Sequence record: PZ534512.1
Length of the DNA: 64,000 nucleotides
From: a phage
Direction: 5' to 3' (one strand)
Of this stretch, positions 1-11,968 are shown one piece after another. Numbering within the stretch: position 1 is the first letter of the stretch; each line of letters begins with the position of its first letter. The notes below the pieces were generated by a model. It did no database searches. It saw only the letters and a program-made list of their open reading frames with translations, and was not told the origin of the DNA. Made by a program: the position numbers and the translations under genes.

Positions 1-39
1 AAGAAACGATTAGAAGATTTAAAATAATTTCACAAAGTT

Positions 40-69
40 GTTTACATAGGGTTTTAGTTGTGATACTAT
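40..69 (+). promoter_or_regulatory. T4-type early promoter
   Basis: GTTTAC-N18-TACTAT, followed by conserved leader ctactgaggagaataaaATG. Confidence 0.6.
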
Positions 70-97
70 TACCCTATCTACTACTGAGGAGAATAAA

Positions 98-283
98 ATG
101 AAACGTTGTGAATTAATTCGAAATGTTGCTATTGCAATTTCTGCTTCTGCTTTTAGTTTTTCAATGTTTGTTGGATTTATATGCGGATTATTGACTACAG
201 CAGAAAACGTTTTTTCACTTGTAGTAGCATTTTTAATTGGTTTAATCGCTATCGTTATGGATAAAATTTCTAAAGGTGAATAG
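98..283 (+). CDS. small hydrophobic protein (61 aa)
   Basis: ATG preceded by GAGGAG RBS; one predicted TM segment. Confidence 0.5.
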   Translation: MKRCELIRNVAIAISASAFSFSMFVGFICGLLTTAENVFSLVVAFLIGLIAIVMDKISKGE

Positions 284-1052: not shown

Positions 1053-1125
1053 TGGGAATTAGCCAAGTTGGTAAGGCACTGGATTTTGATTCCAGGATGC
1101 AAAGGTTCGAGTCCTTTATTCCCAG
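1053..1125 (+). tRNA. tRNA-Gln (anticodon UUG)
   Basis: cloverleaf, acceptor tgggaat/attccca, T-arm GGTTCGAGTCC. Confidence 0.85.
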
Positions 1126-1126
1126 C

Positions 1127-1213
1127 GCGAGAATGGTCAAATTGGTAAAGGCACAGCACTTAAAATGCTGCGGAATGATTTCCTTGTGGGTTCGAGTCCC
1201 ACTTCTCGTACCA
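1127..1213 (+). tRNA. tRNA-Leu (anticodon UAA), long variable arm
   Basis: acceptor gcgagaa/ttctcgt, anticodon loop cttaaaa, encoded CCA. Confidence 0.8.
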
Positions 1214-1219
1214 AAGTTT

Positions 1220-1291
<72 letters not shown>

Positions 1292-1303
1292 AAATTTAAT
1301 TTA

Positions 1304-1377
1304 CTCCGTGTAGCTCAGTTTGGTAGAGCGTCTGCTTTGGGAGCAGAATGTCGTAGGTTCAAATCCTGCCACGGAGA
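1304..1377 (+). tRNA. tRNA-Pro (anticodon UGG)
   Basis: acceptor ctccgtg/cacggag, D-arm tagctcagtttggtagagc. Confidence 0.8.
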
Positions 1378-1379
1378 CT

Positions 1380-1466
1380 GGAGGCGTGGCAGAGTGGTTT
1401 AATGCACCGGTCTTGAAAACCGGCAGTCGCTCCGGCGACTCATAGGTTCAAATCCTATCGCCTCCG
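1380..1466 (+). tRNA. tRNA-Ser (anticodon UGA), long variable arm
   Basis: acceptor ggaggcg/cgcctcc, anticodon loop cttgaaa. Confidence 0.8.
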
Positions 1467-1473
1467 TAATTTC

Positions 1474-1546
1474 GCTGATTTAGCTCAGTAGGTAGAGCAA
1501 CTCACTTGTAATGAGGACGTCGGCGGTTCGATTCCGTCAATCAGCA
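1474..1546 (+). tRNA. tRNA-Thr (anticodon UGU)
   Basis: acceptor gctgatt/aatcagc, anticodon loop cttgtaa. Confidence 0.8.
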
Positions 1547-1552
1547 TATCAA

Positions 1553-1624
1553 GGCCCTGTAGCTGGAAGGTTCAAGCAAGCGACTCATAATCGCCAGATG
1601 GTGGTTCAATTCCACCCAGGGCCA
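1553..1624 (+). tRNA. tRNA-Ile (anticodon CAU, presumably modified C34)
   Basis: acceptor ggccctg/cagggcc, anticodon loop ctcataa; T4 tRNA-Ile is of this type. Confidence 0.7.
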
Positions 1625-1665
1625 TATTTTGGGAACATAAATACTCTTAGAAATAGGAGATATTT

Positions 1666-2331
1666 ATGTTCCATTACACTTATAAAATAACAAATAAAAT
1701 TAATAATAAAATCTATATAGGCGCTCATTCTACCGAAAATTTAGATGATGGATATATGGGTTCTGGTAAATTATTAAAAAGAGCCCAAGACAAGTATGGT
1801 ATAGAAAATTTCTCTAAAGAAATATTAGAGTTCTTTGACGATAAAACCTCTATGTTTGAGTCAGAAAAGAATATTGTGACTGAAGAGTTTTTAAAGCGCC
1901 CTGACGTTTATAATTTGAAATTAGGTGGTGAAGGTGGTTGGGACCATTTAAACACTGAAGAATATTTGGATAAAAAGAAAGAAGCTTCCTTAAAAGGAGT
2001 TGCCGCTTTTAAAACCAGATTTGAGAACGACCCAGACCTTAAAGAAAAATATCGTAAAATGGGTTCAGAAAGGTTTAAACAGCTTTGGGATAATCCTAAG
2101 TATAGAGAGAAATTTTTAAATACTAAATCTTTCTTGGGTAAGACCCATACTCCTGAAACTATTAATAAAATGAAAGAATCTCACGCCAGAAATAAACACC
2201 AACAGGGCGAAAAGAATTCCCAATTTGGTATGATGTGGATTCATTCATTAGATGAAAAAGTTTCTAAACGTATTAAGAAAACTGACCCAATTCCAGAAGG
2301 ATGGTTTAAAGGTCGAAAAATGAAATTTTAA
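1666..2331 (+). CDS. segB: GIY-YIG homing endonuclease SegB
   Basis: 221 aa, YTYKITN..KIYIG motif, GGEGG; lies inside the tRNA cluster as in T4. Confidence 0.8.
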   Translation: MFHYTYKITNKINNKIYIGAHSTENLDDGYMGSGKLLKRAQDKYGIENFSKEILEFFDDKTSMFESEKNIVTEEFLKRPDVYNLKLGGEGGWDHLNTEEYLDKKKEASLKGVAAFKTRFENDPDLKEKYRKMGSERFKQLWDNPKYREKFLNTKSFLGKTHTPETINKMKESHARNKHQQGEKNSQFGMMWIHSLDEKVSKRIKKTDPIPEGWFKGRKMKF

Positions 2332-2334
2332 CTA

Positions 2335-2411
<77 letters not shown>

Positions 2412-2803: not shown

Positions 2804-3277
2804 ATGAAATCATATACTCAATTTTTAAATGAAGCGGTGTTAAATGAAGCATCTAGCACCGAAATTCAAGCTGTCGCAAAAGCAGCCATTGCAGCGGGTA
2901 AATATTCTTATAAAGATGCTTCTGATGAATCGCGATTCCAGTTCGCACGCGACATGAAAGCGGAAGGATTTACGGGAAATGCAGTTAGTATGGCCTGGAA
3001 AAGTTTAGTTGCTACTGGCGCTGCTTTTGCAAAGGCTTCGGGTAAACCTGCTCCTAAAGCAGATCCTAAAGTCGCACAAGAGAAAAATATTGTTAAAGGA
3101 ATTATCTCCAAATATGAAGCTATCCTTAAAGAGCTTTTAGTAATCAAAACTGAAGGCCAAAAACTAGCTCGTGCTTATAGTTTCAAAGATAACCCACATG
3201 CTCACTCTCTTGAGTATGTTGAAGACATTCAAAAAATTATTAAAGACCGCATTTGGTCTGCTAAACAAATCAAATAA
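2804..3277 (+). CDS. internal-protein-like capsid-targeted protein (157 aa)
   Basis: N-terminus MKSYTQFLNE/AVLNE fits T4 CTS pattern with L-x-E protease sites; AGGAAA RBS; own late promoter. Confidence 0.6.
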   Translation: MKSYTQFLNEAVLNEASSTEIQAVAKAAIAAGKYSYKDASDESRFQFARDMKAEGFTGNAVSMAWKSLVATGAAFAKASGKPAPKADPKVAQEKNIVKGIISKYEAILKELLVIKTEGQKLARAYSFKDNPHAHSLEYVEDIQKIIKDRIWSAKQIK

Positions 3278-6898: not shown

Positions 6899-7335
6899 AA
6901 ACACTATCAGCTGGTATTATCTTTATGACAGAAGATAAAGATTTATTTATGGGACGAGTTACTGGTTCTCGTAAACCTGGATTGATGGCACATCGCTGGG
7001 ATATTCCAAAGGGGCGTGTAGAAAGTTCTGATTTAAGCGCATTAGATGCAGCACGAAGAGAATGCTTAGAAGAGACCGGTTTTAGCAATTATAATCCAGA
7101 CCTTCTAGAAGACCTAGGTGTATTTAAATATTCTAGTAATAAAGACCTACAGTTATTTTATTATACGATTCCAGTAGAGCATGAGATGTTTAGAAATTGC
7201 CATTGCGAGTCTTATTTTGAAAATAAAGATGGTGTTATGATTCCAGAAATGGACGCTTTTGCTCTTATTCCTCGTACTCAGTGGCAATATGTGATGGGTC
7301 CTTCACTTTACCGAATAATGAACAGCCTCTTTTAA
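6880..7335 (+). CDS. nudE: Nudix hydrolase NudE
   Basis: Nudix box RRECLEETGF; 151 aa; immediately upstream of e as in T4. Confidence 0.8.
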   Translation: MQEIKMKTLSAGIIFMTEDKDLFMGRVTGSRKPGLMAHRWDIPKGRVESSDLSALDAARRECLEETGFSNYNPDLLEDLGVFKYSSNKDLQLFYYTIPVEHEMFRNCHCESYFENKDGVMIPEMDAFALIPRTQWQYVMGPSLYRIMNSLF

Positions 7336-7866
<531 letters not shown>

Positions 7867-7870
7867 AGCT

Positions 7871-7900
7871 GTTTACTTTCTCTTGCAATTGTGATAGTAT
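7871..7900 (+). promoter_or_regulatory. T4-type early promoter
   Basis: GTTTAC-N18-TAGTAT. Confidence 0.55.
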
Positions 7901-7954
7901 ATTCACAGTTACTTGAATAGATAAATTACTAATTAAAATATTTAAAGGAAACGC

Positions 7955-8272
7955 ATGAAAACATATCAAGAATTTATTGCAGAATCTGCTGCAGGACAGC
8001 GTGTAGAAGGCGGTTATATCTGGATTGAACAAGTTGAGCCGCCAAGTCGCACTTCTACAGGTAAATGGAAAATCACTGTTGATGGTCCTGGTGGTAAACG
8101 TAGGACTCTTAAAGAAATTAACGGGTACTATGAAGAAGCTCTTTCTGACGCGGGTACTTATATGATGCAAATCATGATTAAAAACCCAGAAAATCGTTTT
8201 GCGGCTAGAGTTTTCCGCCGTATTGGAAATAAGCTTTATGATGCATATTCTAAAAACTTCCCTAAAGAATAA
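7955..8272 (+). CDS. internal protein (IPII/IPIII family), CTS-bearing
   Basis: N-terminus MKTYQEFIAE; basic 105-aa protein; downstream of e as in T4. Confidence 0.75.
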   Translation: MKTYQEFIAESAAGQRVEGGYIWIEQVEPPSRTSTGKWKITVDGPGGKRRTLKEINGYYEEALSDAGTYMMQIMIKNPENRFAARVFRRIGNKLYDAYSKNFPKE

Positions 8273-8288
8273 AAATTAAAGGATACAC

Positions 8289-8762
8289 ATGAAAACATAT
8301 CAAGAATTTATTACTGAAGCAGCTATTAATTCTCAAATTATTGCTGAATCTTTTACTGATCTTTTGAAATTTAAAAAAGGTCAAAAAATCACTGCTGTAT
8401 TGGATGATGGTACAGAAATTGAGATGGATGTACAAGGATATAATTATGCAGTAGATGGAAAACTGTATAATAAATCTCATGCTAAATTTGATTCATTTGA
8501 CGACTTTGTTAATACAGTTGAAGATGAAAAAACTCGTCGATCCATTGCAACTGGTGATGCTAAGGTTCTTATGGCACATGGTCATGAACGCATTCGCGCT
8601 AAACAGAATAAAATGGGTGAAGATAATTTTGCATTAGTTGGTTATCAATCTGGTAAACAAACTTATGGCTATCAACGTACTGCTACAATGTATAATAAAA
8701 ATGGTAAAATTGCCTTTGTAAATAGTAAAGGTTCTATTCAGTACGTTAAATCGTTCAAATAA
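8289..8762 (+). CDS. internal protein (IPII/IPIII family), CTS-bearing
   Basis: N-terminus MKTYQEFITEAAINSQIIAE with two L/I-x-E sites; 157 aa. Confidence 0.75.
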   Translation: MKTYQEFITEAAINSQIIAESFTDLLKFKKGQKITAVLDDGTEIEMDVQGYNYAVDGKLYNKSHAKFDSFDDFVNTVEDEKTRRSIATGDAKVLMAHGHERIRAKQNKMGEDNFALVGYQSGKQTYGYQRTATMYNKNGKIAFVNSKGSIQYVKSFK

Positions 8763-8897
8763 TATGGGAACAGCCTGGACCTCATTTGAGGTATTCCCGC
8801 CAACCTGTGATAAGGTCGAGCCAAAGCGCGGTAATGGGTAATGCAGGAATGGACAACTCATGTGCCATGGAATGGCCCAAAAATTAAGAGAGAAAAT

Positions 8898-9440
8898 ATG
8901 AAAACATTTTTAACTGGCCCGTATCTATCCCTGATGAATGCTTTTACACACCATTCTGATGCTAGAGTAGAAGAAATTTGTAAAAACGAATATATCCCGC
9001 CATTTGAAGAATTACTTAAACAGTACTGTACACTTCGTATAGATGGTGGACGTCAATCCGGTAAATCACTTGCTGTGACTAACTTTGCTGCTAATTGGCT
9101 GTATGATGGCGGAACAGTTATTGTTCTATCTAATACTTCAGCTTACGCTAAAATTTCTGCAAATAACATTAAAAAGGAATTTTCGCGTTATTCTAATGAT
9201 GATATACGTTTTCGTTTATTTACTGATTCTGTGCGCAGTTTTATTGGTAATAGAGGTAGCAAGTTCAGAGGTTTATCGCTTTCACGAATTTTGTATATAA
9301 TTGATGAGCCTGTTAAATCTCCTGATATGGATAAAATTTACGATATTCATATTGAAACTGTGCAACACTGTTGTCGAAGCTATAATGCTGAAACAGGTGA
9401 AACAGTTCGTCCTCAATTTTTTGTGATTGGAATGCAATGA
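8898..9440 (+). CDS. P-loop NTPase-like protein (180 aa)
   Basis: Walker A GGRQSGKS, Walker B LYIIDEP; start moved to ATG with GAGAGAAAA RBS. Confidence 0.5.
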   Translation: MKTFLTGPYLSLMNAFTHHSDARVEEICKNEYIPPFEELLKQYCTLRIDGGRQSGKSLAVTNFAANWLYDGGTVIVLSNTSAYAKISANNIKKEFSRYSNDDIRFRLFTDSVRSFIGNRGSKFRGLSLSRILYIIDEPVKSPDMDKIYDIHIETVQHCCRSYNAETGETVRPQFFVIGMQ

Positions 9441-9766
9441 TGACAGACACACAGCTTTTCGAATATCTTTATTTTTCGCCAAAAACTATTAAAAATAAAT
9501 TGGTGAATCATTTTGAAATTTTGGCAAATAATAACATTTTGAGCGAATTTTATCCCAAGCAATACAAATTACAAAAAGGCGTATTCAAAGGATGCAGAGT
9601 TTTGTGCACTGCTCCTAATGCACGGCTAATGAATAAAATTCCATATTTTACCATGGAATTTATTGATGGACCTTTTAAAGGACTAATCACCCAAAGTTTA
9701 ATGGCATATGATTCTGAGCCATTTTTAATTAAAGAACAATCTTGGATAAATTTATTTTCTAATTGA
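9437..9766 (+). CDS. hypothetical protein (109 aa)
   Basis: ATGA overlap coupling. Confidence 0.5.
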
Positions 9767-9773
9767 GGTTTAT

Positions 9774-10136
9774 ATGAAAGCATATCAAATTCTTGAAGGC
9801 ACACATAAAGGTACTATTTATTTTGAAGATGGTATTCAAGCACGAATTATTGTCTCTAAAACCTTTAAAGAGGACTCTTTTGTAGACCCAGAAATTTTCT
9901 ATGGTTTGCATGCCCGTGAAATTGAAATTGAGCAACAGCCTACAGTTAAAATTGAAGGTGGTCAACACCTGAACGTTAACGTTCTGCGTCGCGAAACTTT
10001 GGAAGATGCAGTTAAGCATCCGGAAAAATATCCGCAGCTGACCATCCGTGTATCCGGTTATGCAGTTCGCTTTAACTCTCTGACTCCGGAACAGCAGCGC
10101 GACGTTATCGCTCGTACCTTTACTGAGAGTTTGTAA
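9774..10136 (+). CDS. autonomous glycyl-radical cofactor (GrcA/YfiD-like)
   Basis: C-terminal glycyl radical motif [27 protein letters not shown]; 120 aa. Confidence 0.8.
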
Positions 10137-10357
10137 TGGCAAAGATAATTATTGAAGGTTCTAAAGATGTGCTAAATGCTTTCGCCGAGTGGTTTAGTAA
10201 TTCAGGCGAACAGCAATTTAATGAAGCCTGGAATATGGGTGATATTGATGGAATTTATCCTACGACAGAAATTTCTGTTCAAGGATATGGCATTCATGAA
10301 CCTATTCGTTTAGTTGAATATGATTTATGTACTGGTGAGGAAGTCAAATATGATTGA
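10136..10357 (+). CDS. hypothetical protein (73 aa)
   Basis: TAATG overlap with upstream gene. Confidence 0.45.
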   Translation: MAKIIIEGSKDVLNAFAEWFSNSGEQQFNEAWNMGDIDGIYPTTEISVQGYGIHEPIRLVEYDLCTGEEVKYD

Positions 10358-10616
10358 AGACATTAAAGGTTATAAGCCGCATACTGAAGAGAAAATCGGT
10401 AAAGTGAATGCTATTAAAGACGCTGAAGTTCGTTTAGGACTTATCTTTGACGCTTTATACGATGAATTCTGGGAAGCACTAGATAATTGTGAAGATGATG
10501 AACTCGCGAAGAATTATGCTGAAAGCCTCGATCAGTTAACTATTGCTAAAACGAAACTCAAAGAAGCCAGTATGTGGGCTTGTCGTGCAGTGTTCCAACC
10601 AGAGGAAAAATACTAA
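10350..10616 (+). CDS. Acb2-like cyclic-oligonucleotide sponge candidate (T4 vs.4 position), 88 aa
   Basis: position 4 genes upstream of regB; small helical acidic protein; AGGAAG RBS; assignment from recall. Confidence 0.45.
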
Positions 10617-10894
10617 TGGCTCAATTAAGTGCAGGGTTTGGTTATGAGTATTATACTGCACCTCGTCGTGTATCTGCCGCTCCTAAGAAAATTCAAAGTC
10701 TTGATGACTTCCAGGAAGTAGTCCGTAAAGCTTTTCAGGACTATGCACGCTATCTTAAAGAAGATTCGCAGGACTGTCTCGAAGAAGATGAAATTGCTTA
10801 CTATGAGCAGCGTCTTGAACAGCTTAAAAACTTACATGAGGTTCGTGCAGAAGTTTCAAAGTCTATGAATAAATTGATTAGATTTAAAGAATAA
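10616..10894 (+). CDS. hypothetical protein (92 aa)
   Basis: TAATG coupling to upstream gene. Confidence 0.45.
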
Positions 10895-10896
10895 CT

Positions 10897-10926
10897 GTTT
10901 ACTTTTCCTCTTGACTGTGGTATAAT
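10897..10926 (+). promoter_or_regulatory. T4-type early promoter
   Basis: GTTTAC-N18-TATAAT. Confidence 0.65.
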
Positions 10927-10953
10927 TTTTCTATCAGTTAAGAGGAGAATAAC

Positions 10954-11415
10954 ATGACTATCAACACTGAAGTTTTTATCCGTCGAAATAAGCTTCGTCG
11001 TCACTTTGAGTCGGAGTTTCGTCAAATTAACAATGAGATTCGTGAGGCATCAAAAGCAGCAGGGGTCTCATCGTTTCATCTAAAATATTCTCAGCATCTT
11101 CTTGATCGTGCAATTCAACGGGAGATTGATGAGACATATGTTTTTGAATTATTCCATAAAATAAAAGATCATGTTTTAGAAGTTAATGAATTCCTGAGTA
11201 TGCCTCCGCGTCCTGACATTGACGAGGATTTTATTGATGGGGTTGAATATCGTCCTGGACGTTTAGAAATCACAGATGGAAATCTTTGGCTTGGATTTAC
11301 AGTTTGTAAGCCTAATGAGAAGTTCAAAAACCCGTCACTTCAATGCAGGATGGCAATTATCAACAGTCGTCGTTTACCAGGAAAGGCTTCTAAAGCAGTA
11401 ATTAAAACTCAATGA
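10954..11415 (+). CDS. regB: RegB site-specific endoribonuclease
   Basis: 153 aa; matches T4 RegB as I recall it. Confidence 0.85.
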   Translation: MTINTEVFIRRNKLRRHFESEFRQINNEIREASKAAGVSSFHLKYSQHLLDRAIQREIDETYVFELFHKIKDHVLEVNEFLSMPPRPDIDEDFIDGVEYRPGRLEITDGNLWLGFTVCKPNEKFKNPSLQCRMAIINSRRLPGKASKAVIKTQ

Positions 11416-11422
11416 GGTAAAC

Positions 11423-11968
11423 ATGAGAAAAGCACTACTCGCTGGTCTATTGGCCATTTCAATGATGGCACATAGCTCCGAGCATACTTTCAGTAATGTC
11501 CAACTCGATAACATGCGTTACGCGTATCAATTCGGGGAACAATTTTCTAAGGATGGAAAATATAAAACACACAAAAATATCCACAAGAGCGGATTAGGTC
11601 ATATAATGGCTGCCATTTTATGGCAAGAAAGCTCTGGCGGAGTTAATTTAAAATCTAAACCAAAGCATCACGCCTACGGAATGTTCCAAAATTATTTGCC
11701 TACTATGCGAGCAAGAGTTAAGGAACTTGGTTATAATATGACCGATGCTGAAATAAAAAGAATGTTGAATAAACGGTCCAATTCAGCTTCCTGGGCGTAC
11801 ATTGAACTTTCTTATTGGTTAAATATACATAAGGGCGATATAAGAAAAGCAATATCCTCTTATAATTCGGGATGGAATGTTAAAGCAGGTTCTAAATATG
11901 CTTCTGAAGTCCTAGAAAAGGCTAATTACCTTAAAAATAATAAACTTTTGGAAATAGTAAATGACTAA
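11423..11968 (+). CDS. secreted lytic-transglycosylase-like protein (T4 vs.1 position)
   Basis: signal peptide; SLT-like motif LWQESSGG...AYGMFQ. Confidence 0.55.
   Translation: MRKALLAGLLAISMMAHSSEHTFSNVQLDNMRYAYQFGEQFSKDGKYKTHKNIHKSGLGHIMAAILWQESSGGVNLKSKPKHHAYGMFQNYLPTMRARVKELGYNMTDAEIKRMLNKRSNSASWAYIELSYWLNIHKGDIRKAISSYNSGWNVKAGSKYASEVLEKANYLKNNKLLEIVND

Follow-up and report, generated by a model that had tools for sequence, protein, structure and literature searches.

The question raised by this locus is whether a small open reading frame lying between vs.5 and vs.3 encodes Acb2 (anti-CBASS 2), a sponge for the cyclic nucleotides that activate CBASS immunity. The window analyzed here is the whole stretch of phage DNA, 64,000 nucleotides in length. 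A sequence-only reading of it had drawn attention to an 88-aa acidic, helical product at 10350-10616 and had guessed, from position and size, that this would be the counterpart of Acb2. The guess holds up well: ORF 10350..10616 is almost certainly the ortholog of T4 vs.4 (acb2), the cyclic-dinucleotide sponge of Tequatrovirus. The gene and its immediate surroundings are as follows.

10350..10616, + strand: acb2 / vs.4 coding sequence, identified through the 7UQ2_A match, PF24729, PHROG 717 and Foldseek.
10337..10342, + strand: Shine-Dalgarno motif GAGGAA, inside the 3' end of vs.5; in phage Ge15 a ribosome-binding site is annotated just upstream of the same coding sequence.
10136..10357, + strand: vs.5 (73 aa), the upstream neighbour, its end with the stop codon reaching 8 nt into acb2; matches PHROG 1986 over its full length.
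10616..10894, + strand: vs.3 (92 aa), the downstream neighbour, with an ATG that shares 1 nt with the acb2 stop; matches PHROG 2037.
10954..11415, + strand: regB endoribonuclease, a landmark, preceded by an early-promoter-like site at 10898..10926 (TTTACT-17-TATAAT with TG).

The reading frame opens with an ATG at 10350, closes with TAA at 10614-10616 and contains 88 sense codons. Both the coordinates and the N-terminus given in the earlier reading are exact, and its description of the product is equally apt: the protein of 10.2 kDa has a pI of 4.58 (20 D+E against 12 K+R) and two predicted helices. Read from the sequence, the spacing between the Shine-Dalgarno motif and the ATG is 7 nt. Start and stop codons overlap on both sides of the gene, the ATG with the stop of vs.5 (ATGATTGA) and the acb2 stop with the ATG of vs.3 (TAATG). 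Such tight packing of starts and stops is typical of T-even early regions. The Shine-Dalgarno motif and the overlapping codons, together with the presence of a homologue in 1,240 phage records and a dN/dS of 0.06 relative to T4, show that this is not a chance reading frame.

A search against all PDB sequences returns T4 Vs.4 (7UQ2_A) as the top match, with 86/88 identities over the full length (E 8.5e-55). The Acb2 of PaMx33 (8H2J, 8IXZ) is a weak full-length match (E ~0.02) in which Y8 and K23 pair with Y11 and K26. Family-level searches agree: the product scores 71.3 bits against the Pfam family PF24729 (Acb2_Tad1_hairpin), for which the curated cut-off is 27, and it matches PHROG 717 (E 1.8e-32), the group used by Jenson et al. 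to define Vs.4 and to gather 198 homologues (PMC10097602). That vs.4 is acb2, as the earlier reading had it, is stated explicitly in three sources (bioRxiv 10.1101/2022.03.30.486325, PMC12657218, PMC10312549). The exact 88-aa protein is already public (for instance AUV63255.1), with 32 contigs carrying it and 8 phage records encoding it without a change. In the databases it is mostly labelled 'hypothetical protein', also in the nearest relative, Ge15.

The genomic context points in the same direction. Between 9000 and 13000 the window shows 99.7% identity to Escherichia phage Ge15, a Tequatrovirus, and hundreds of T4-like phages match it at 97-99%. Genes are arranged in the order e, two internal-protein genes, vs.8, vs.7, vs.6 (GrcA-like), vs.5, acb2, vs.3, regB, vs.1 (SLT domain), vs and tk.4 (macro domain). 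From vs.8 onwards this order matches the T4 reference map, and the order around the vs.4 slot is also that of T2 and Ge15. The position of T4 vs.4 had thus been called correctly, with the order vs.5-vs.4-vs.3-regB being the same as in T4; the distance had not, as acb2 is the second rather than the fourth gene upstream of regB, with only vs.3 in between.

A number of other features of this region differ from the T4 reference. In the window vs.5 is an intact frame of 73 aa, whereas T4 (NC_000866, 63381..63557) lacks 1 nt (TTTCG-CGAG) some 50 nt after the start of the gene, and the annotated T4 Vs.5 of 58 aa runs in a shifted frame that stops 36 nt short of vs.4. By this comparison, the Vs.5 of the T4 reference looks like a frameshifted version. 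At 8763..8840 (+), from ipIV to the vs.8 ATG, lies a G+C-rich spacer with an imperfect hairpin (GGGAAcagcctggaCCTCAtttGAGGtATTCCC). In T4 the homologous stretch forms the 5' end of vs.8, a gene that is longer there, so that the vs.8 product has 199 aa in the window and 219 aa in T4. The internal-protein locus encodes a 105-aa protein starting with the capsid-targeting sequence MKTYQEFIAE (7955..8272, +), followed by the 157-aa ipIV product (8289..8762, +), of which 155/156 residues are identical to T2 IPIV (DUF7412; PHROG 3155, 'internal virion protein'); in T4 the locus holds ipIII and ipII. A tblastn search of the complete 64 kb with Ge15 DenV did not find denV (endonuclease V). In Ge15 this gene separates e from the internal-protein genes, and exactly that place is taken in the window by a spacer of 88 nt (7867..7954); in T4 it lies between ipII and vs.8, and T2 lacks it at the same locus.

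Further upstream, a T4-type cluster of eight tRNAs is present at 1053..2411 (+), comprising Gln, Leu, Gly, Pro, Ser, Thr, one with a CAU anticodon (tRNA-Ile in the T4 annotation) and Arg. A GIY-YIG homing endonuclease ORF (1666..2331, 221 aa) is inserted between the CAU tRNA and tRNA-Arg, at the position of segB. T4 has rnaC and rnaD, but no ORF, between tRNA-Arg and e.8; at this place in the window we observe a 157-aa ORF (2804..3277, +) that starts with MKSYTQFLNEA and matches PHROG 2280 (unknown function); a Pfam search with this protein gave no match. Its start resembles the capsid-targeting leader of internal proteins, and the ORF may encode another injected internal protein.

Expression signals were scanned as well. 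Sigma-70-like sites number 18, fewer than the 25.9 expected from shuffled sequence, and on the + strand none is found between 9469 and the promoter-like site in front of regB. A regular expression for the MotA box (TGCTTNA-N11-13-TANNNT) has no match in 7000-11500; for the late-promoter motif TATAAATA the only occurrences are at 7338 and 7351. The first terminator-like site on the + strand comes no earlier than 12318, and an Rfam scan of the whole window at gathering thresholds yields only the eight tRNAs. Given the start and stop codons that overlap on both sides and the lack of a convincing promoter directly upstream, the simplest reading is that acb2 would be co-transcribed and translationally coupled with vs.8 to vs.3 from an upstream promoter.

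Structure prediction was the second check that the earlier reading had proposed, and its outcome again favours Acb2. The AlphaFold2 model, built from the single sequence, consists of two helices (residues 10-45 and 50-81) joined by a hairpin turn at residues 46-49, with short unstructured termini and a mean pLDDT of 86.9. When this model is compared to the PDB with Foldseek, three chains of 7UQ2 come first (probability 1.00, TM 0.73-0.75), followed by three chains of PaMx33 Acb2 (8H2X, 8H2J; probability 0.98-0.99). Below rank 6 only unrelated generic coiled coils are listed, with E above 0.5.

The residues on which function depends can be taken from the T4 protein. There Y8 and F82 stack on the bases of cGAMP, and Y8, H11, K23 and R79 provide hydrogen bonds or salt bridges (PMC10097602). 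Inhibition of the effector CapV is lost on mutating Y8 or F82 at the ligand or L29, A66, A73 or A77 at the interface, the F33A mutation destabilises the hexamer, and T12I, S74N and A77I were recovered in a screen as inactivating mutations, whereas L60F still inhibits CapV (PMC10097602). F82C is known as a mutation that escapes the Panoptes defence (PMC12657218). In the window protein the cGAMP-contact residues Y8, H11, K23, S74, R79 and F82 are all unchanged, and sequence comparison shows the hexamer-interface residues L29, F33, A66, A73 and A77 to be identical to T4. In total 13 positions with a role in ligand binding, hexamer formation or stability of T4 Vs.4 (12 at which mutation disrupts function, plus H11) are unchanged, T12 included, and the same holds for L60, the position of the active mutant. 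The corresponding codons are located as follows.

10371..10373, + strand: codon Y8, stacking on a cyclic-dinucleotide base; unchanged from T4 and invariant in the family (role: PMC10097602, PMC10312549).
10416..10418, + strand: codon K23, salt bridge or hydrogen bond to cGAMP; unchanged and invariant in the family (role: PMC10097602, PMC10312549).
10497..10505, + strand: codons 50-52 (D-E-L) at the hairpin tip, carrying C50D and F52L.
10569..10595, + strand: C-terminal ligand and hexamer segment S74-F82 (S74, A77, R79, F82), all identical to T4 (roles: PMC10097602).

To place these residues in the wider family we used an alignment of nine sequences built from phage-database hits, ranging from 98% to 26% identity. 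It contains the window protein, T4 and further Straboviridae (including Gaprivervirus VR7, Moonvirus Merlin, Pseudotevenvirus and Slopekvirus Miro), and from outside this family one Phapecoctavirus, one siphovirus and PaMx33. Seven positions are invariant (G7, Y8, N20, K23, M75, R79 and P84). Residues from about 36 to 64 are variable, and indels occur exactly at the hairpin tip. This is the pattern described by Huiting et al., in which the termini of Acb2 are conserved and carry the function and the middle varies in length and sequence (bioRxiv 10.1101/2022.03.30.486325). By homology, fold, pocket residues and synteny, the ORF belongs to the Acb2/Vs.4 family proper.

The mechanism is well described for T4. 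Vs.4 was crystallised with cGAMP; the hexamer holds three cGAMP molecules, binds them with a Kd of ~30 nM and inhibits CapV (PMC10097602), and a second study reports a Kd of 84 nM for cGAMP and no binding of cA3 and cAAG (PMC10312549). T4 without vs.4 plates about 50-fold worse on a type II CBASS host mutated in Cap2, and wild-type CBASS overcomes the sponge by conjugation of cGAS, which raises the output of cGAMP (PMC10097602). T4 Acb2 also binds 2',3'-c-di-AMP, the decoy produced by OptS of Panoptes, and is required, and by itself enough, to set off the OptE membrane toxin (PMC12657218).

By analogy, the 10-kDa two-helix hairpin protomers encoded in the window would assemble by six into an interlocked hexamer, of which the three dimer interfaces would form three pockets, each trapping one cyclic dinucleotide. 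Ligands would be those known for the family, 3',3'-cGAMP at tens of nM and other CDNs, with the bases stacked by Y8 and F82 and the phosphates and riboses bound by Y8, H11, K23 and R79. The messenger made by the host CD-NTase would be sequestered without being degraded, leaving CapV (a phospholipase) and other CBASS effectors inactive and allowing the phage to complete its cycle. The same property would be a liability in hosts with Panoptes (OptSE), where sponging of the 2',3'-c-di-AMP decoy would release the OptE toxin.

Cyclic trinucleotides are not expected to bind, as with T4 Acb2. The range of CDNs bound by T4 Acb2 equals that of PaMx33 Acb2, but in the T4 protein the helix at the trinucleotide pocket is unkinked, the helix angles are smaller, and Y37, A57, L60, D61 and T64 would clash with the ligand; a D61R mutation does not rescue binding (PMC10312549). 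The pocket residues Y37, A57, L60, D61, T64 and T68 are shared with T4 Acb2. Given this identity of the pocket, we predict that the window Acb2 belongs to the dinucleotide-only T4 subtype. Trinucleotide binding, as in the dual subtype of PaMx33 and JBD67, was considered and rejected: D61 stands at the equivalent of R67, T68 is present and the pocket is that of T4.

Only two amino acids distinguish the product from T4 Vs.4, namely C50D and F52L, both where helix 2 begins, directly after the turn. At the nucleotide level 13/264 positions differ, 10 by synonymous and 3 by non-synonymous changes, which corresponds to a dS of 0.23, a dN of 0.014 and the dN/dS mentioned above. With a value this low, acb2 is under strong purifying selection. 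When 14 Tequatrovirus Vs.4 alleles of the same 90% cluster are compared, the differences accumulate mainly in residues 43-54 (L/F/W44, D/N45, N/S/D46, C/D/Y/F50 and F/L52). The window allele has L44-D45-N46 like T4, and D50 and L52 like the commonest allele (P0003, 178 contigs). Judged from these residues it looks like a mosaic. The 90%-identity cluster also lists two proteins of 73 aa (P0007 and P0015) that are in fact Vs.5, a clustering artefact that affects the cluster sizes.

It might be argued that the hairpin tip makes a functional difference, in that the product is a member of Acb2 of which the C50D/F52L allele has a shifted ligand spectrum or hexamer stability, for example a weaker hold on 2',3'-c-di-AMP or a gain of trinucleotide binding. 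The concentration of variation in residues 43-54 would fit such a shift, as would the family-wide indels at the same site, and F52 lies near in sequence to A57 (five residues away), L60 and D61, all part of the lining of the trinucleotide pocket that is closed in T4 Acb2 (PMC10312549). By the argument of the Panoptes paper, decoys should also favour sponges whose specificity is retuned (PMC12657218). Nonetheless, all known CDN-contact and hexamer residues are unchanged, the middle region has been described as simply variable with the function residing in the conserved termini (bioRxiv 10.1101/2022.03.30.486325), and Cao et al. ascribe the lack of cA3 binding to helix geometry, with D61R being without effect (PMC10312549). 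Natural isolates bear on the matter too. The Tequatroviruses Bas36-45 are all restricted by Panoptes, and Bas45, of which the Vs.4 allele (P0008) carries D50/L52, is restricted more than 1,000-fold. If the Bas45 restriction depends on Acb2, this is consistent with normal decoy binding, and it gives indirect support to the view that D50/L52 alleles still bind nucleotides. We therefore consider an altered ligand spectrum or stability very improbable. A related proposal, that residues 43-54 are under diversifying selection imposed by a host factor recognising Acb2 or by decoy nucleotides, and that C50D/F52L consequently differs measurably from T4, appears just as hard to sustain; if true, the two changes would set the protein apart from T4 Acb2 in the ligands it binds, in the stability of its hexamer or in how guard systems recognise it.

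Even less probable, to the point of being barely credible, is that the window holds a decayed or inactive copy of acb2. Precedents do exist: in phage T2 the N-terminus of vs.4 is disrupted and lacks Y8, as also remarked in the Panoptes paper, and PaMx41 has a premature stop (PMC12657218). The window copy has a full-length frame with the native N-terminus MIEDIKGY and an intact Shine-Dalgarno motif and overlapping start and stop codons, and both the strong constraint on its codons and the spread of the identical protein over the contigs and phage records counted above argue against decay. That an unrelated small acidic helical protein occupies the vs.4 slot by coincidence can be dismissed. Two-helix hairpins are common, and unrelated coiled coils do appear lower in the Foldseek list, but the protein is 98% identical to a crystallised one and its Pfam score is far above threshold.

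The T2 locus is worth describing in its own right. In the T2 genome (NC_054931, 10591..10875, -) the 5' end of vs.4 is disrupted, the in-frame translation giving a stop followed by LKILRDKPHTEEK. The annotated T2 Vs.4 of 86 aa is without the ligand-stacking Y8, which agrees with the Panoptes paper, where loss of the dinucleotide site in T2 is considered probable (PMC12657218).

Overall, the ortholog of T4 vs.4 stands as the preferred reading. The identity of acb2, the family it belongs to, its fold, the preservation of its functional residues, the purifying selection on it and its synteny are shown by the present analysis. From these we infer that the C50D/F52L allele behaves like the T4 protein. 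The result correctly identifies a gene that was known before: publications already cover the gene itself, its structure, how it works and even a host guard that exploits acb2. Naming it acb2 is useful given that most records say 'hypothetical protein', but it has little importance beyond a correct annotation. Some predictions on host range follow. The phage is predicted to evade CBASS systems that signal through cGAMP or other CDNs, unless conjugation by Cap2 boosts the signal, to gain no protection from the sponge against cA3-based CBASS, and to be sensitive to guard systems of the Panoptes type. Apart from this, the natural allele series at residues 43-54 could serve as a cheap resource for probing whether the hairpin tip has a function at all.

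Comparison with known systems places the window protein closest to T4 Vs.4/Acb2 (7UQ2; NP_049728.1), with which it shares the length of 88 aa, the ligand and hexamer residues and the neighbours vs.5, vs.3 and regB. The arrangement upstream is not the same: the T4 reference has a 36-nt gap between its vs.5 with the 1-nt deletion and vs.4, whereas in the window the intact 73-aa vs.5 overlaps the start. The Vs.4 of Klebsiella phage ZCKP1 (NC_047994, 7842..8102), a Phapecoctavirus that belongs to the Stephanstirmvirinae and not to the Straboviridae, is 78% identical to that of the window, and the Vs.4 proteins of several true T4-like genera are less similar (50-67%). As the ZCKP1 protein is closer than those of several T4-like genera, this suggests that acb2 may have moved horizontally between unrelated myoviruses.

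PaMx33 Acb2 (AcbIIA1; 8H2J, 8H2X, 8IXZ) belongs to the same family and has the same interlocked hairpin hexamer fold with three CDN pockets, at about 25% identity to the window protein. It differs in also binding cA3 and cAAG, through two extra pockets with R67, T74 and a kinked helix (PMC10312549), where the window protein has D61 and T68. Tad1 (Thoeris anti-defence 1) has the PF24729 hairpin domain and the sponge strategy in common (PMC10680739), but it binds the Thoeris signal gcADPR and has additional elements. Acb2 homologues that bind 3'cADPR have extra N- and C-terminal beta-strands (PMC12393519), which are absent from the model of the window protein. An assignment to the Thoeris-inhibiting subtype (Acb2_43 type) was rejected for the same reason, the model consisting of two helices with short unstructured termini.

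Finally, Acb1 (T4 gene 57B) serves the same aim as Acb2, the removal of CBASS cyclic nucleotides, and T4 has both acb1 and acb2. The window starts at trna.4 (1..283 against T4 73329..74410), and in T4 ipI and 57B (acb1) lie immediately upstream of that point. If the genome is collinear with T4, acb1 would be located just upstream of the window start and outside the window. The two proteins reach their aim in different ways: Acb1 is an unrelated phosphodiesterase that degrades the messenger instead of sequestering it, and it does not trigger Panoptes (PMC12657218).
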